A program made the translations under genes and the position numbers. Positions 365-62,891 of a stretch of 64,000 bases of DNA are shown here, piece by piece. The stretch is from Verrucomicrobiota bacterium (lineage in GTDB: Bacteria; Verrucomicrobiota; Verrucomicrobiia; Limisphaerales; Palsa-1400): positions 46,311 through 110,310 of the forward strand of contig JBEKVM010000004.1 in assembly GCA_049513975.1 (NCBI GenBank), in the 5' to 3' direction. The notes under the pieces are model-generated. The model saw only the letters and a list, made by a program, of their open reading frames with translations, was not told where the DNA came from and made no database searches. Within the stretch, counting starts at the first letter, position 1. Each line of letters begins with the position of its first letter.

Positions 365-2602
365 TCAGAATTGATAACTGAGCGTGCCGAAGAGGCCGCG
401 GCGCATGCCGTATTGAGCGGCATTGACGCCAACGCCCGTTGCGCTGCGCAACTGATAAATGTTGTCGGTCACGTTGACGATATCAAGGCGGACTTTCAAG
501 AACTGCTTGTGGGCGACTTTGAAAGTTTGTTCCGCGCCGAGGTTGATCTCGTAATAGTCCGGAACGGTTGCCCCGTTGGGAATGGGGCCGGCTCCGTCGG
601 CCGCGGGTTCGAGGCCGCCGCCGCTCTGCCGCAATCCACTGCCGGTGACGAGGTCCAGATAGGTCAGAGTGCTGGCTTCATGGGACTCTCTGAAACGATA
701 AGACACGCCGGCCGTGGCGGTATATCTCTGGTCGTGGTCCAGATAAATCCAATGGTTCTGGACATAGGCGAGATCGCCCGGAGAGAAGAGAAACTGGGCA
801 GAGTCCCAATTTTGACCCTGGGCGTAGGAGTAGGCGAGGTTGGCGTAAACGGAAAAGTCGTTGGTCTGGTAGGAGGTGGTCAGTTCCAGGCCATAGACGC
901 GGCCTTTTTCATAGTTGAAGGCGGAGAGAATGAGGGTCTGTCCAAAGAGTCCGTCATCCAGTTGTTGCTGGGCGGTCTTGTAGTAACCGTCCAGGCCCAC
1001 AGTCCATCCGGGAAGGATGGTTTGGTTGATGCCAACGTCGTAGTAGTTGGCGCGCTCGGCCTTGACGGGACTGTCGAGGGTGACCGCGGAGGCGCCGGAG
1101 GTGCCGGTGAACAAGCTCAAGGCGCCGGAGCTGACAGCCTCGACGGGCGGCGGGGTGAAGTAGCGCGAGTAACCGGCGTGGAGGGTGGTGCCGTCGAAGG
1201 GTTGGTAAACGAGGTTGACGCGCGGACTGAGTTGATTTTCGGCGTCAAAAGAAGAGGAGTAAACATCGAAGCGCGCGCCGTAATTGAGGGTGAGCGTGGA
1301 GGCGATTTTCCATTCGTCCTGCAAATACGCGCCCATAAACAAGCCGTAGAGGGGATAGTTGTCCGAGATGTTTCTCAGGGGGGTGGCTGCAGGATTGCCG
1401 GCGGCCATGTTGAAGACGGTGGTGGAGGTGTTGTTTTGATCGCCTGTGGCCAGAAACGACCCGCCCGTCCGAAGGGTATGGGAATTGCCCCATTGATAAC
1501 TGGAGTCGGCTTGCAAGCCGGCGGAGTAGAGGGTGCGATGCACTTGGCTGGCCTCGCCGTTGAGAAAGAGGTCGCCGATCGGGTCGGGCGTGAAATGCTG
1601 TTCGCTTTCGCGGCCAAAAGCGGAGACTTGAAAATCCAAATCACCGGCGGATTTTTGATAAGTGAGGACCGTGTAATAATTCTCTTCGTTTTGATTTTCG
1701 TTGTCGTTGGCCGAATTGAAAGAGCCGGTGTATCCCGGAACATTGGCCGGAGTCATGGCGGAAGACCAGGCAGCGCCCCCCGGAGCCGTGCCCGAGGCAA
1801 CGCCGGGGGTGTTGGGCACCTGGAAGTCGCTGTAGGACGCGCTGCCCATCATGGTGAGGCGGCTGGAGGGGTCAATGACGTAAGACCCGTAGAGGAAGGT
1901 CTTGAACTGCTCGGTTTCATCATGAATCGCCGTGGAAGCGGAGGTGGGATTTTCCACGCCCAAATCATTGTGGTCGTAGCTGCCGTCCACGAAATAATTG
2001 AATTTGCCCGCCGAGCCGCCGTATTCAAAACTGGGGCGGAAGGTGTCGTAACTGCCGCCATAGAGGGAGATTTCGCCGCCGGGATTGAGGGCGCCATTCT
2101 TGGATTGAATATCCACCACGCCCGCGGTGCGGAAGCCGTATTGGGCGGGGAGCGAGCCGGTGATGAGTTTGATGCTCTGGATGAAGCGCGGGTCCAGTTC
2201 CAGGCCAAAGCCGGCGATGCCTTCGGGCAGGAGCACGCCGTCAATGCGGTATTGCAGGTTGGCGTGCTCGCCGCGCACATGCAAATCCCCGTTTTCCGCC
2301 GAATCCTGCGCCACGCCGGGAAAGCGGGTGATGACTTGATTGACCGGCGCGTTGGCCCCCTGGGCAATGGCCTGGATTTGCACGTCGTCCTTTAGAGAAA
2401 CGGTGGCCCCCAGACTGGGCATGATCTGAGTGGCGATGGCCTGATTCAAATGCCCCACCACGGTGGTCGTCCCGAGGGCGGTGACGTTGGTTGCGCCGGC
2501 GGCGGCGGCCGGCGGATTGTTGGTCTGACCCCAGGCTCCCGGGCCGGCCACCGCCGCCAGCCCAATAGCTGTCAATTGCAAATAACGATAAACTGAATTC
2601 AT
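365..2602 (-). CDS. TonB-dependent receptor
   Basis: Signal peptide; plug-like segment GVAQDS..GDLHVRGEHANLQYRIDGV; QDEWK and LSPRVNL barrel motifs; ends in terminal aromatic residue (LSYQF). ATG 2602 preferred over TTG 2611. Confidence 0.92.
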   Translation of the reverse strand: MNSVYRYLQLTAIGLAAVAGPGAWGQTNNPPAAAAGATNVTALGTTTVVGHLNQAIATQIMPSLGATVSLKDDVQIQAIAQGANAPVNQVITRFPGVAQDSAENGDLHVRGEHANLQYRIDGVLLPEGIAGFGLELDPRFIQSIKLITGSLPAQYGFRTAGVVDIQSKNGALNPGGEISLYGGSYDTFRPSFEYGGSAGKFNYFVDGSYDHNDLGVENPTSASTAIHDETEQFKTFLYGSYVIDPSSRLTMMGSASYSDFQVPNTPGVASGTAPGGAAWSSAMTPANVPGYTGSFNSANDNENQNEENYYTVLTYQKSAGDLDFQVSAFGRESEQHFTPDPIGDLFLNGEASQVHRTLYSAGLQADSSYQWGNSHTLRTGGSFLATGDQNNTSTTVFNMAAGNPAATPLRNISDNYPLYGLFMGAYLQDEWKIASTLTLNYGARFDVYSSSFDAENQLSPRVNLVYQPFDGTTLHAGYSRYFTPPPVEAVSSGALSLFTGTSGASAVTLDSPVKAERANYYDVGINQTILPGWTVGLDGYYKTAQQQLDDGLFGQTLILSAFNYEKGRVYGLELTTSYQTNDFSVYANLAYSYAQGQNWDSAQFLFSPGDLAYVQNHWIYLDHDQRYTATAGVSYRFRESHEASTLTYLDLVTGSGLRQSGGGLEPAADGAGPIPNGATVPDYYEINLGAEQTFKVAHKQFLKVRLDIVNVTDNIYQLRSATGVGVNAAQYGMRRGLFGTLSYQF

Positions 2603-2725
2603 AAATTTCAAACAAAATGGTTAAAGTTTTTGGGATTTCCCGCCCGAGTCCCTGTCAAGCAGGGTCTGCGCCAATGGCAGAGCACCGCGAGCAGGACCCA
2701 CTAATAATTGAAACCGGCGAACGAA

Positions 2726-3058
2726 CTAACTGGGGAGGGAGAGGAGAGAGGGAGGACCGCGGACCGGGAGCAAGCGGACATCGGTGGAAACAAAAGCGGC
2801 CTCGCGCCGGGACTGGATGAAAAGGGCGAGCGGTTGGGGCCGGACCACGGGAAGCGCCGGCTCCGGGCAGTGAACCTGGCCGTGGGCGAACAGGGTGACG
2901 GCGCATTGGTGGCCTGGCTCCGACGCGTCGGAATGGAACAGGAGATGCAGGCCGGGGAGAACGACCATGGCCTGAAGGAGGAGGAAGACAGCGAGCCACA
3001 AGGCCGCGTGGCCCCGCCTCGCCTTCCGTGAAAAGACCCATGAAAGCGCCTGCTTCAC
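2726..3058 (-). CDS. DUF2946/CruR-like leader protein ending in RGPP
   Basis: Hydrophobic segment, His/Cys motif (HLLFH..GHQCAVTLFAHGQVHC), C-terminal RGPP, directly upstream of the TonB receptor on the same strand; start codon uncertain (GTG 3058). Confidence 0.7.
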   Translation of the reverse strand: MKQALSWVFSRKARRGHAALWLAVFLLLQAMVVLPGLHLLFHSDASEPGHQCAVTLFAHGQVHCPEPALPVVRPQPLALFIQSRREAAFVSTDVRLLPVRGPPSLLSLPS

Positions 3059-61147: not shown

Positions 61148-61529
61148 CCAGCGCGATTCCGAATCAAAAGACCCGTTCCGTCAGGTCGTTCAAGGCCTGG
61201 CGGACGGGTTCAATGACCCACTTCGGCCGGGGCGGCCAGCCCGCCAACGGGGCGCCATGACCACCGGGCCGCGCCGGTTTTTCGGCGCAGCGAGGCCAAG
61301 GACCCGGCAGGAGCCTTGCCCTGCCGAAACGCTGCAGCGAAGGCCTCCCCGCCTGCGGGTTGCGGCGGCGTCCCGCGCCGGCTTCAGGTTCACGCGCCGG
61401 GACGGTGCCGGATCCCGCAACCGGGGAGGGCTGCGCCACCGGACAACCCACTTAATTGGGGCTGAGAATTCAATTGCGCATTCGGCGGGAACTTCGCTAT
61501 ATGTCATCGTGCAGAACCGCGCATCCTTG

Positions 61530-62891
61530 ATGACGATGAAAGACCTGTGGGCCGGGGGCCTGTTGGCGATGTGGATGATCGCCGCCAGCGGCTCTGCGCA
61601 GACCTATGTCTTCCGCAACGTCGCCGGCAATGCCGCCACCTACGGCATCACCGATGGCACCAATGGCAACGCCCTGTTCAACGGACCTGCTGGCGTCGCC
61701 GTGGACGGCCAGGGCAATCTTTATGTGGCGGATCAAATAAGCTGCACCATACGTAAAATCACCCCGATCGGCACCAATTGGGTCGTCACCGCCATCGCTG
61801 GTTCCGCCAACCAAATCAATGGCAACCGGGTGCAAGATGGCACCAATTCCCAGGCCCTCTTTAATTGGCCCACCGGGATAGTCGTGGACCCTTCCGGCAA
61901 TCTCTTTGTGGCCGACCAGTTCAACAACGCCATCCGCAAAGTCACGCCGATGCCCGGCACGACCAACTGGGTCGTGACGACCATCGCCGGGCAGGGGCCG
62001 AACAGCACAGGCTTCGCGGATGGCACCAACTCAGCCGCCCTCTTTGACCAGCCGGCGGGCATCGCGGTGGATGCCAACAGCAATGTTTTTGTGGCCGATC
62101 AGTACAACCACGCCATTCGCAAAGTCACGCCGATGCCCGGCACGACCAATTGGGTCGTGACGACCATCGCCGGGCAGGGGCCGAACACGAACGGCGCCGT
62201 TGACGGCACCAATACGGCAGCTCAATTCAACGCTCCCTCGGGCATTGCCATGGACGCCAACGGCAATCTCTTTGTGGCCGACCAGTTCAACAACGAGATT
62301 CGGAAGATGACGCCCTCCGGCACGAACTGGATTGTCACCACCATCGCCGGGCATGCGCCGCCGGGCAAAACCGGCTTCGCTGATGGCACCAACACGGCTC
62401 GATTTAACAATCCCACAGGCGTGGCCGTGGACACCAACGGCAACGTCTATGTGGCCGACGAAAAAAACGATGCCATCCGCAAACTGACACCCCTTGGCAC
62501 CAACTGGGTGACCACCACCATCGGCGGCCACGCCCTGACCAGCGGCACCAACAATGGCTCCGGCACCAACGCTCTGTTTTATTTTCCGTTCAGTTTGGCG
62601 GTGGACGGCAAGGGCAGCGTCTTTGTGGCCGACATGGACAATAACACCATCCGCATCGGATTCCTGCCGCCCGCGATTCTCAACTCCGCGCCGCCCTTTG
62701 GCTTTGACCAGGGCCAGTTTGAGTTCATCCTCACCGGCCCGACAGGGCAGTTGGTGGTCGTCGAAGCCTCCTCCGACTTGCTGGCCTGGGTTCCGATTTG
62801 GACCAACACCTTCGGCCCCGGCCAGATCTTTTTCGCCGACCCGCAGACCGCCCCCCCTGCTCCCCGCTTCTACCGCGCCCAACTGCCGTGA
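61530..62891 (+). CDS. Secreted NHL-repeat (beta-propeller) protein
   Basis: Six F..P.G(I/V)AVD..GN(L/V)(F/Y)VAD..N..IRK repeats; same C-terminal domain as the preceding gene. Confidence 0.9.
   Translation: MTMKDLWAGGLLAMWMIAASGSAQTYVFRNVAGNAATYGITDGTNGNALFNGPAGVAVDGQGNLYVADQISCTIRKITPIGTNWVVTAIAGSANQINGNRVQDGTNSQALFNWPTGIVVDPSGNLFVADQFNNAIRKVTPMPGTTNWVVTTIAGQGPNSTGFADGTNSAALFDQPAGIAVDANSNVFVADQYNHAIRKVTPMPGTTNWVVTTIAGQGPNTNGAVDGTNTAAQFNAPSGIAMDANGNLFVADQFNNEIRKMTPSGTNWIVTTIAGHAPPGKTGFADGTNTARFNNPTGVAVDTNGNVYVADEKNDAIRKLTPLGTNWVTTTIGGHALTSGTNNGSGTNALFYFPFSLAVDGKGSVFVADMDNNTIRIGFLPPAILNSAPPFGFDQGQFEFILTGPTGQLVVVEASSDLLAWVPIWTNTFGPGQIFFADPQTAPPAPRFYRAQLP

Follow-up and report, generated by a model that had tools for sequence, protein, structure and literature searches.

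Comparison with known systems

One of the closest described parallels is the general O-glycosylation system of Bacteroidota, whose motif, D-(S/T)-(A/I/L/V/M/T), is enriched phylum-wide in non-cytoplasmic proteins (PMC12871550). The dipeptide Thr-Asn (TN) behaves similarly in the genome of the uncultured verrucomicrobium analyzed here: it is short, enriched throughout the lineage but only in non-cytoplasmic proteins, and present in roughly half of the exported set, and hydrophobic or small residues are favored after its core. However, the motif is T-N here and D-S/T-hydrophobic there, and Ser cannot stand in for Thr (the observed/expected ratio, O/E, of SN is 0.92). The genome shows no enrichment of the Bacteroidota motif itself (O/E of 0.87 among exported proteins and 0.95 among cytoplasmic ones). 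Moreover, the Bacteroidota motif bears glycans, whereas TN is so far a matter of sequence statistics.

The PglB-type N-glycosylation of Campylobacterota (D/E-X-N-X-S/T) is periplasmic, targets Asn in a sequon with upstream-residue dependence, and acts on folded proteins too; Pro directly after Asn is disfavored both in that sequon and in TN. Unlike in PglB systems, a search for STT3/PglB (PF02516) gave no match in this genome or in 8 relatives, with archaeal controls matching, and the classical sequons are not enriched in exported proteins (O/E of 1.06 for N-x-S/T and 0.93 for D/E-x-N-x-S/T, the same as in cytoplasmic ones). Only 16.5% of TN dipeptides are followed by x-S/T.

Actinobacterial PMT (GT39) and the eukaryotic TMTC1-4 and TMEM260 are GT-C O-mannosyltransferases, membrane enzymes, classically Sec-coupled, that transfer a lipid-linked sugar to Thr/Ser on the far side of the membrane (PMC11727336, PMC10214176). 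The substrates of TMTC and TMEM260 are beta-rich domains of the Ig/IPT type, and GT-C enzymes of the PMT_2-like and TMEM260-like families are encoded in this genome. These enzymes accept Ser and have no strict sequon, in contrast to the strict requirement for Asn and the low SN ratio seen here (0.92 versus 1.92 for TN). The PglL/PilO-type (Wzy_C) enzymes modify Ser/Thr in Ala/Pro-rich low-complexity stretches resembling the STNAP and AAASTNAP linkers of this genome, but they have no Asn requirement, and the presence of Wzy_C, found in each of the 16 genomes examined, E. coli and every TN-negative genome among them, does not go with the TN trait. To our knowledge, T-N is not used by any known system, and failure of Ser to replace Thr is unusual for O-glycosylation.

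TN excess across the proteome

The starting point was an earlier note on a stretch of 64,000 nucleotides (the window), which proposed that a TN bias restricted to exported domains could be a lineage-specific glycosylation or sorting signal, to be checked by proteome-wide O/E ratios. The whole genome (6.05 Mb, 4,737 called genes) was processed with our own gene caller and home-made signal-peptide and topology heuristics, which assign approximately a quarter of the called genes to the exported class; expected TN numbers were derived from the T and N content of each protein, and shuffle p-values were obtained for each window protein. In exported proteins, TN ranks first among the 400 dipeptides, with 3,378 occurrences versus 1,756 expected (O/E 1.92, z 38.7); the runner-up has an O/E of 1.55. 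With a strict signal-peptide set, the ratio is 1.97 (bootstrap interval, 1.83-2.11). The ratio for cytoplasmic proteins is 1.14-1.22, and a mixture fit puts 90% of them at 0.93. A similar fit places 48% of the exported class at 1.11, so that about half of it shows no excess, which is partly accounted for by misclassification.

Among the related dipeptides of exported proteins, TD (0.90), TQ (0.71), and NT (0.84) are, like SN, below unity, so both T and N are needed and their order matters. Raw TN density is 3.2-fold higher in exported than in cytoplasmic proteins; about half of this gap arises because exported proteins contain more T and N, and the remainder is specific to the T-then-N order. 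The codon pattern ACNAAY occurs 3414, 978, and 280 times in frames 0, 1, and 2 of the exported genes versus 1495, 1522, and 411 times in the cytoplasmic genes, which limits the TN excess to the coding frame. The exported O/E stays at 1.87-2.0 across all length bins and at 1.6-2.1 across all composition bins, and the excess genome-wide spans more than one repeat family; the enrichment survives correction for composition and repeats.

Window proteins

Exported proteins of the window carry 49 TN versus 29.7 expected, and cytoplasmic ones carry 8 versus 7.5; the by-eye counts of the earlier note were accurate. The clearest case is an exported protein that combines an NHL beta-propeller with a C-terminal beta-sandwich (positions 61509..62891, plus strand; Pfam NHL, 2.9e-36), which has 15 TN and 5 NT (4.98 TN expected, p<0.0005). 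As the note had read them, its NHL repeats have DGTN in place of the usual DGxG, and 12 of the 15 TN lie within the repeat motifs DGTN..A.F and GTNW. A strong excess is also seen in a pilin-like protein with an N-terminal FTRIELVVV motif (33825..34586, minus strand; 6 TN and 2 NT, 0.95 TN expected, p<0.0005). Pfam and NCBIfam searches with this protein gave no match, and its hexamer coding score, although approximately 0, far exceeds those of the other five frames; its codon usage is atypical. The exported Ig-domain protein (58034..61147, plus strand; Pfam Ig_3 and I-set) shows a modest excess (15 TN and 4 NT, 9.5 TN expected, p=0.04). The TolC-like outer-membrane efflux protein (55536..56825, plus strand; Pfam OEP, 7e-53) has 4 TN and 1 NT (1.28 TN expected, p=0.03), and a predicted multi-pass membrane protein (37076..38278, minus strand) has 3 TN and no NT (0.69 TN expected, p=0.027).

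A sensor histidine kinase (39854..41833, minus strand; HisKA and HATPase_c at residues 426-648) has 4 TN and no NT (0.92 TN expected, p=0.008). With hydrophobic segments near residues 20 and 384, all four sites (residues 64, 167, 189, and 197) fall in its periplasmic part and none in the cytoplasmic part. The topological restriction suggested earlier holds for this kinase, and the enrichment is restricted to the exported class; within single proteins genome-wide, the restriction is not evident under our crude home-made topology calls, where the multi-pass test showed no TN contrast.

The motifs described as following signal peptides do exist: GQTNN and ATNVT lie right behind the signal peptide of the TonB-dependent receptor (365..2611, minus strand; Pfam TonB_dep_Rec_b-barrel and Plug), and GTNAM is present in the Wza-like protein (12735-13406). 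Neither protein, however, has an overall excess (3 TN versus 3.45 expected and 1 versus approximately 1, respectively). An exported BBP2-type porin (9060..10436, plus strand; Pfam BBP2_2) has no TN versus 2.96 expected, and 2 NT. A protein with a twin-arginine signal (MNRRRFLKDL..., 44789..46033, minus strand) has 1 TN versus 0.68 expected and is, like the whole Tat class, unenriched. The cytoplasmic control PurH (13973..15568, minus strand; PF01808 match in the whole-genome search) has 1 TN versus 0.61 expected; the protein at 15775-17025 and the NtrC-like protein also have one apiece, in agreement with the earlier estimate of about one each for PurH, RsmB, and NtrC.

Lineage distribution

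The TN excess is lineage-specific, being a property of a verrucomicrobial order (subdivision 3, Pedosphaera-like), as the note had surmised. Exported TN O/E is 1.40-2.32 in five further genomes from this order versus 0.66-0.99 in three sister orders and 0.76 in E. coli. Genomes of other classes are mostly at 0.6-1.2 (four to six genomes); two are at 1.7-1.9 and look independently TN-positive. Homologs of the NHL protein are either rich in TN (DGTN) or poor in it (DGTG), the equivalent position being TN 349 times and TG 325 times, and the homolog from the cultured Pedosphaera parvula has 25 TN versus 7.8 expected.

Export route and site context

Tat substrates (n=52) have a TN O/E of 1.09 (0.81-1.43; p=2e-6 versus the Sec rate). 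The contrast between the strict Sec set (1.97) and Tat (1.09) is a measure of motif density, distinct from modification, and would fit an enzyme that acts on unfolded Sec-translocated chains. Still, actinobacterial O-mannosylation reaches Tat substrates too (PMC11727336), so this contrast is no proof of a PMT-like mechanism.

Directly after TN, P is depleted to 0.51 and K to 0.57, and at the second position R and K are depleted to 0.32 and 0.41, respectively. Clusters of at least 4 copies within 30 residues number 52 for TN, 0 for NT, 1 for SN, and 0 for TD. Among the TN clusters are low-complexity linker arrays, such as GTNA x18, PSTNA x5, and AAASTNAP. At approximately 7 per 1000 residues, TN occurs over the full length of the chains, which makes the sorting signal considered earlier unlikely. 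Across orthologs within the order, 20% of exported TN sites are conserved versus 31% for the average dipeptide, while the respective values for cytoplasmic proteins are 59% and 46%; exported TN sites turn over fast between orthologs. In the AF2 model of the NHL protein (pLDDT 89.9), 14 of the 15 TN are in loops or at loop/strand or loop/helix boundaries.

Candidate enzymes

The GT-C-like membrane protein at 7128..8981 (plus strand) had been put forward as a candidate TN transferase, but nothing ties it specifically to TN. Its match to PMT_2 is weak (32.1 bits), the NCBIfam search gave none, and it is one of 14 such genes in the genome (10 PMT_2-like, two of them with TPR tails, and 4 TMEM260-like). 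Its neighbors encode an NtrC-like regulator, the BBP2 porin, and Wzc-like and Wza-like exporters; given this exopolysaccharide locus, a polysaccharide role is more likely. None of the candidate enzymes tracks the trait across TN-positive and TN-negative genomes: TMEM260-like genes are found in 8 of 8 TN-positive genomes and also in 4 of 9 TN-negative ones, and PMT_2 genes occur everywhere among the searched genomes.

Interpretation and alternatives

We give a rough probability of 0.45 to the reading that TN is a motif recognized by an envelope factor, most likely a GT-C glycosyltransferase. TN would be the core of a motif of roughly T-N-[not P or K]-[not R or K, often P, V, F or T], read by a factor of this verrucomicrobial order and a few other lineages; the likeliest reader would be a membrane-bound enzyme of the GT-C fold using a lipid-linked sugar. 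From the pattern we infer a modification, probably a glycan, on either Thr (O-linked) or Asn (N-linked). Its targets would be unfolded segments leaving the Sec translocon or exposed loops and linkers, and Tat cargo, folded in the cytoplasm, would be neither a substrate nor enriched. Selection may maintain the number of sites, not their position, so that sites would arise and decay at variable surface positions. The need for both residues in fixed order, the site turnover, the loops, and the tandem linker arrays would all fit a sequon. A fuller proposal, to which we give less weight, is a general glycosylation system with TN as the minimal sequon that would act on Sec-exported chains and decorate about half of all envelope and secreted proteins. 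Verrucomicrobia subdivision 3 would have it, as would other diderm lineages, whether by independent origin or by transfer.

The strongest competitor, in our view unlikely, needs no reader: TN would be a lineage habit of loop design, with Thr closing a turn and Asn capping the next strand or short helix, amplified by repetition within beta-rich surface proteins and by their expansion into paralogs. Indeed, in the AF2 model the Asn starts or directly precedes a strand at 6 sites and caps a short helix at 4, most TN of the NHL protein lie within its internal repeats, 132 low-charge, T/N-rich proteins supply 1,603 of the 3,378 exported TN, and Thr and Asn are universally abundant in exported mature domains (PMC5468347). 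However, sister lineages build the same folds with DGTG and other pairs (exported O/E of 0.6-1.0), the excess is equal in small and in T/N-poor proteins, Tat substrates lack it, unstructured linkers are also filled with TN, and structural caps should be conserved, whereas conservation of exported TN sites is below average.

Somewhat less probable again is a reader that is not an enzyme, such as a periplasmic chaperone, holdase, quality-control protease, or secretion factor binding TN in unfolded Sec substrates. The Sec specificity of the excess, a marginally higher TN density near the mature N terminus (first 100 residues), and the avoidance of charged residues just behind TN would suit it, but arrays in permanent linkers and exposed loops of folded proteins better suit a lasting decoration, and we know of no chaperone that reads a polar dipeptide. 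A non-glycan modification of Thr or Asn (e.g., hydroxylation, phosphorylation, methylation, or a cross-link) shares its statistical support with the glycosyltransferase reading and draws on the rejection of Ser and the absence of the classical oligosaccharyltransferase; it is nevertheless improbable, as no candidate enzyme family was found for it, such dense periplasmic modification is otherwise known only for glycans (PMC12871550), and mucin-like linker arrays are typical of glycosylation. An artifact of our non-standard gene calls and signal-peptide heuristics, for which the exported share of about a quarter of the genes and the flat multi-pass topology result speak, is very unlikely, given the Pfam domains of window proteins in the called frames, the same value in the strict signal-peptide set, no excess in E. 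coli and nine other genomes under the same pipeline, and matching TN counts in database homologs called by others.

If the fuller proposal is true, bacteria would have either a second known case of general O-glycosylation driven by a sequon or a new N-glycosylation that is independent of STT3. Should TN be a sequon, its proteome-wide signature would be explained, modified sites could be predicted by a simple rule, and the dipeptide could become a new glyco-engineering tag and help to trace, by comparison, the transferases behind sequon-driven O-glycosylation in bacteria. A large and ecologically important group of soil and freshwater bacteria would then decorate much of its surface proteome by an undescribed chemistry.

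Thr-Asn excess in exported proteins

The assembly that contains the window (C4:46311-110310) comprises 6.05 Mb in 233 contigs with 60% G+C. Genes were called by a purpose-written procedure based on in-frame hexamer log-likelihoods, with long high-GC3 ORFs as the training set, followed by a second pass that kept an ORF if it outscored the five alternative frames of the same position and that recovered atypical genes, such as the one for the pilin-like protein of the window. This yielded 4,737 genes at a coding density of 85%. Proteins were classified by our own heuristic rules, which covered Sec signal peptides, lipoboxes, prepilin N-termini, and hydrophobic segments: 2,485 were assigned to the cytoplasm and 1,162 to an exported class without further hydrophobic segments, the remainder being membrane or mixed. 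Expected counts of each dipeptide were calculated per protein as n_a x n_b / L and then summed; because the expectation derives from each protein's own composition, differences in Thr or Asn content among proteins or classes are unable to yield a signal.

With this correction, the Thr-Asn (TN) bias that the earlier note had observed in the exported domains of the window is confirmed and extends to the whole genome: exported proteins contain 3,378 TN dipeptides versus 1,756 expected (observed/expected ratio [O/E] 1.92, z 38.7), compared with an O/E of 1.22 for the cytoplasmic class. TN ranks first of all 400 dipeptides in exported proteins, the runner-up being HC (1.55), and the reverse dipeptide NT stands at 0.84. 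A stricter selection, which required a signal peptide at the called start and comprised 581 proteins, has a ratio of 1.97 (bootstrap interval 1.83-2.11), compared with 1.14 for cytoplasmic proteins 100-700 residues long. A two-component Poisson fit splits the cytoplasmic class into 90% at 0.93 and 10% at 2.66; this minor component consists mostly of giant proteins, whose signal peptides were probably overlooked. The exported O/E values of control dipeptides (SN, 0.92; TD, 0.90; TQ, 0.71; TS, 0.81; TG, 0.98; AN, 0.87; GN, 0.99) show that Thr, Asn, and their order are all required for the excess, which is 1.87-2.00 across six bins of protein length and 1.6-2.1 in every bin of T+N or charged-residue content.

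The raw density of TN per 1000 residues differs 3.2-fold (6.9 in exported and 2.2 in cytoplasmic proteins); approximately half of this difference arises because mature domains of exported proteins are, as is well known, rich in Thr and Asn (PMC5468347), and the remainder is specific to the order Thr-then-Asn. Thr directly precedes 14.1% of the Asn residues of exported proteins versus 6.7% of those of cytoplasmic ones. TN outnumbers NT in 52% of exported proteins and NT outnumbers TN in 17.5%, the cytoplasmic figures being 23.5% and 20.6%. The excess is not the product of a single repeat, as 60% of exported proteins exceed their own expectation and the commonest tri- to pentapeptides containing TN are varied (TNA, GTN, TNL, TNG, STN, TNAP). 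Nor is it a DNA-level effect, since the ACNAAY excess is confined to exported genes and, within them, to the coding frame (3414, 978, and 280 occurrences in frames 0, 1, and 2, respectively, versus 1495, 1522, and 411 in cytoplasmic genes). The preference for ACC among Thr codons that precede Asn codons (70-76%, versus 53-54% overall) is found genome-wide in cytoplasmic and exported genes alike and is a general codon-pair bias distinct from the TN excess.

In the window, a recount reproduced the counts originally made by eye. The NHL protein (61509-62891, plus strand) has 15 TN and 5 NT (4.98 TN expected; shuffle p <0.0005), the Ig protein (58034-61147, plus strand) 15 and 4 (9.5 expected; p 0.04), the pilin-like protein (33825-34586, minus strand) 6 and 2 (0.95 expected; p <0.0005), the TolC-like protein (55536-56825, plus strand) 4 and 1 (1.28 expected; p 0.03), and the kinase (39854-41833, minus strand) 4 and 0 (0.92 expected; p 0.008), with 4 of 4 in its periplasmic part, as had been claimed. 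PurH (13973-15568, minus strand), the NtrC-like regulator, and the protein encoded at 15775-17025 have a single TN each. The excess is not common to every exported protein of the window: the TonB receptor (365-2611, minus strand) shows none (3 TN, 3.45 expected), and TN is absent from the BBP2 porin (9060-10436, plus strand; 2.96 expected) and from an exported 873-residue protein (19591-22212; 1.67 expected).

Several other features of the window deserve mention. A second prepilin-type protein (56979-57857), which matches the GspG N terminus, has zero TN, in contrast to the pilin-like protein. The segment 31400-35070, which scores poorly as coding sequence in every frame, contains no genes other than the atypical one for the pilin-like protein and an ORF with a weak score (32301-33338); it may be of foreign origin. 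Among the four small genes at 22209-23617, which overlap pairwise (129+94 and 68+91 residues), one has an HTH-like sequence; the layout resembles that of two candidate toxin-antitoxin pairs.

Export route and membrane topology

Tat substrates were defined by the strict twin-arginine signal RRxF[LIVFM], a looser pattern being dropped because it matched ordinary Sec signals. The 52 resulting proteins contain 50 TN versus 46.0 expected (O/E 1.09, interval 0.81-1.43; 0.74 without one probable Sec outlier), and the probability of so few TN at the Sec rate is ∼2e-6. The lack of excess in Tat substrates indicates that a location in the periplasm is not enough for the excess, which tracks export by Sec or the unfolded state. 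TN is likewise enriched in several membrane proteins and in the part of the window kinase that lies in the periplasm. In a small sample, the five classical kinases that were usable, periplasmic loops have 5 TN versus 1.3 expected and cytoplasmic parts 2 versus 1.9. Multipass proteins, oriented by the positive-inside rule with crude topology calls, give 1.35 inside versus 1.43 outside; a selection of 2-TM "sensor-like" layouts, intended for within-protein topology, caught giant exported proteins.

Distribution among relatives

By PurH-based loci, the relatives belong to Verrucomicrobia subdivision 3 (Pedosphaera, Limisphaerales, and "Verrucomicrobiia" MAGs). A set of 80 purH-centred loci from relatives gave an O/E of 1.17 and was confounded, because the matching syntenic region of this genome (porin, Wzc, Wza) is also without excess; it was replaced by random genome samples of 50-240 kb processed with the same pipeline. 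A DNA-pattern proxy (ACNAAYGCNCCN versus a reversed control) was rejected for genome typing, as it did not agree with the measured O/E (1.04 for G052, measured at 1.89, and 3.3 for G027, measured at 1.21).

The lineage specificity that had been suggested from the window is borne out: the trait is common to the order and absent from its sister orders. Exported O/E is 2.32 in a genome of the same genus (G004, TN ranking 1/400), 1.50 in one of the same family (G009), and 2.01, 1.94, and 1.40 in other families of the order (G016, G018, and G020), versus 0.88, 0.99, and 0.66 in three genomes from other orders of the class. In other classes of the phylum, six genomes gave 0.61, 0.70, 0.80, 0.87, 1.21, and 1.15 (G043, G026, G054, G031, G027, and G046, respectively), and two gave 1.89 and 1.73 (G052, TN:NT 24:8; G040, 31:10), so that at least two further lineages of the phylum probably have the trait. 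E. coli K-12, the outgroup, stands at 0.76. Cytoplasmic values in the sampled genomes are mostly 0.5-1.2, with three higher ones (1.23-1.44) that have wide intervals; the G055 and G049 samples were left untyped, exported protein being too scarce. A 10.5-Mb genome labelled Limisphaerales (G061, locus L059) has an O/E of 0.84, which means that the public label spans lineages with and without the trait; its PurH is 67% identical and its other homologs ∼41%, as distant as those of other orders. Outside the window, an exported 1,363-residue protein (C5:29206-33340), judged by eye to be of the beta-helix or filamentous-haemagglutinin type, has 6 NT and 0 TN (7.8 expected) and may have been acquired recently from a lineage without the excess.

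Anatomy and turnover of the sites

Relative to own-protein composition, Leu, Ala, and Trp are favoured right after the Asn of TN and Pro (0.51) and Lys (0.57) disfavoured; at the next position, Pro, Val, Phe, and Thr are favoured and Arg (0.32) and Lys (0.41) disfavoured. The flanks are thus weakly but clearly biased. The sites are spread throughout the chain, with a somewhat higher density over the first 100 mature residues, which argues against a terminal signal for sorting, the other role proposed in the earlier note. Clusters of at least 4 per 30 residues number 52 for TN, 0 for NT, 1 for SN, and 0 for TD. Part of them are plain low-complexity linkers (e.g., AAASTNAP, GKTNE); the purest such array in the genome lies outside the window, in a GspC/PilP-like 367-residue protein (C62:23499-24603) with ∼18 GTNA-type units in a periplasmic linker and PSTNA five times near the C terminus. 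As modelled by AlphaFold2 (pLDDT 89.9, pTM 0.87), the NHL protein has 14 of its 15 TN within loops or where a loop meets the following element, with Asn beginning or immediately preceding a strand at 6 sites and capping a short helix at 4. A structural habit without any reader, to which these placements are pertinent, is an unlikely source of the excess, which also occupies the low-complexity linkers.

Turnover was analyzed in aligned best-hit homologs (≥70% coverage) from the sampled relatives. Within the order, at 55-66% identity, only 17 of 83 exported TN sites (20%) are conserved, versus an all-dipeptide average of 31% (rank 295/342); the nonconserved positions pair with varied polar or charged dipeptides, and conservation of cytoplasmic TN sites exceeds the average (59% versus 46%). 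Within the genus, TN conservation is 76% versus 75% for the average dipeptide, and most changes retain Asn, with Thr replaced by Ser or Ala. Low site conservation despite a persistent excess indicates that the number of TN is maintained while positions drift. The NHL protein of the window was compared with 120 database homologs, in which the repeat position is occupied by DGTN in 349 instances and by DGTG in 325; 20 of these homologs have a TN O/E below 0.75 and zero DGTN. The Pedosphaera parvula homolog has 25 TN versus 7.8 expected, and that of one MAG labelled Limisphaerales 4 versus 4.7. Single-position indices, one comparing STNL with STDL within the C-terminal domain and one on the Ig motif, were set aside for low counts.

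Candidate enzymes

STT3/PglB is absent from this genome, and known motifs are not enriched in its exported proteins (O/E 0.93 for D/E-x-N-x-S/T; 1.06, equal to the cytoplasmic value, for N-x-S/T; 0.87 for the Bacteroidota O-glycosylation motif). Periplasm-facing GT-C candidates are numerous: 10 genes are PMT_2-like, including two that resemble TMTC and have TPR tails, and 4 are TMEM260-like (1,000-1,470 residues, two in tandem). TMEM260-like genes occur in 8 of 8 genomes with the TN excess and in 4 of 9 without it (Fisher p=0.03, for genomes that are not phylogenetically independent); Wzy_C and PMT_2 are found in every genome examined, with or without the excess. A search for an enzyme family that tracks the trait therefore came out empty.

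The GT-C-like protein at 7128-8981 (plus strand), formerly put forward as a candidate transferase, is not supported in that role: it matches PMT_2 weakly, its surroundings (the NtrC-like regulator on one side; the BBP2 porin, a Wzc-like kinase, and a Wza-like exporter on the other) resemble those of polysaccharide export, and no tie to TN was found. By gene content (histidine kinase, NtrC-like sigma-54 activator, GT-C-like protein, BBP2 porin, Wzc-like tyrosine autokinase, and Wza-like exporter), 4363-13406 looks like a polysaccharide-export style locus. Its activator scores 405 bits against the PEP-CTERM-box regulator model, under the cut-off. The locus resembles XrtA/PEP-CTERM-associated EPS loci, yet the whole genome has only 3 candidate PEP-CTERM-like tails, none with TN.

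Interpretation

Literature searches found no published description of a TN motif or signature. The best explanation, to which we assign a probability of about 0.45, is that TN could be a sequon, i.e., the core of a recognition motif for an envelope modification, likeliest glycosylation. Recognition of TN by a reader that is not an enzyme is improbable, somewhat more so than the structural habit, and a modification other than a glycan is the least probable of the three. GT-C O-mannosyltransferases (PMT, TMTC, and TMEM260; PMC11727336, PMC10214176) would be compatible with the link to Sec and with beta-rich targets but lack a strict sequon. The closest analogue of the proposed sequon is the general O-glycosylation of Bacteroidota, whose three-residue motif is enriched phylum-wide in non-cytoplasmic proteins and carried by approximately half of them, its transferase being still unknown (PMC12871550). 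The motif here is TN, with Ser rejected, and is known from sequence alone, so that the resemblance is one of behaviour (enrichment in exported proteins, lineage-wide in both) and not of membership. Given that precedent, lineage-wide enrichment of a motif in exported proteins is a reasonable signature of general glycosylation, and a TN number that is kept while positions drift is as would be expected of decoration at variable surface positions.
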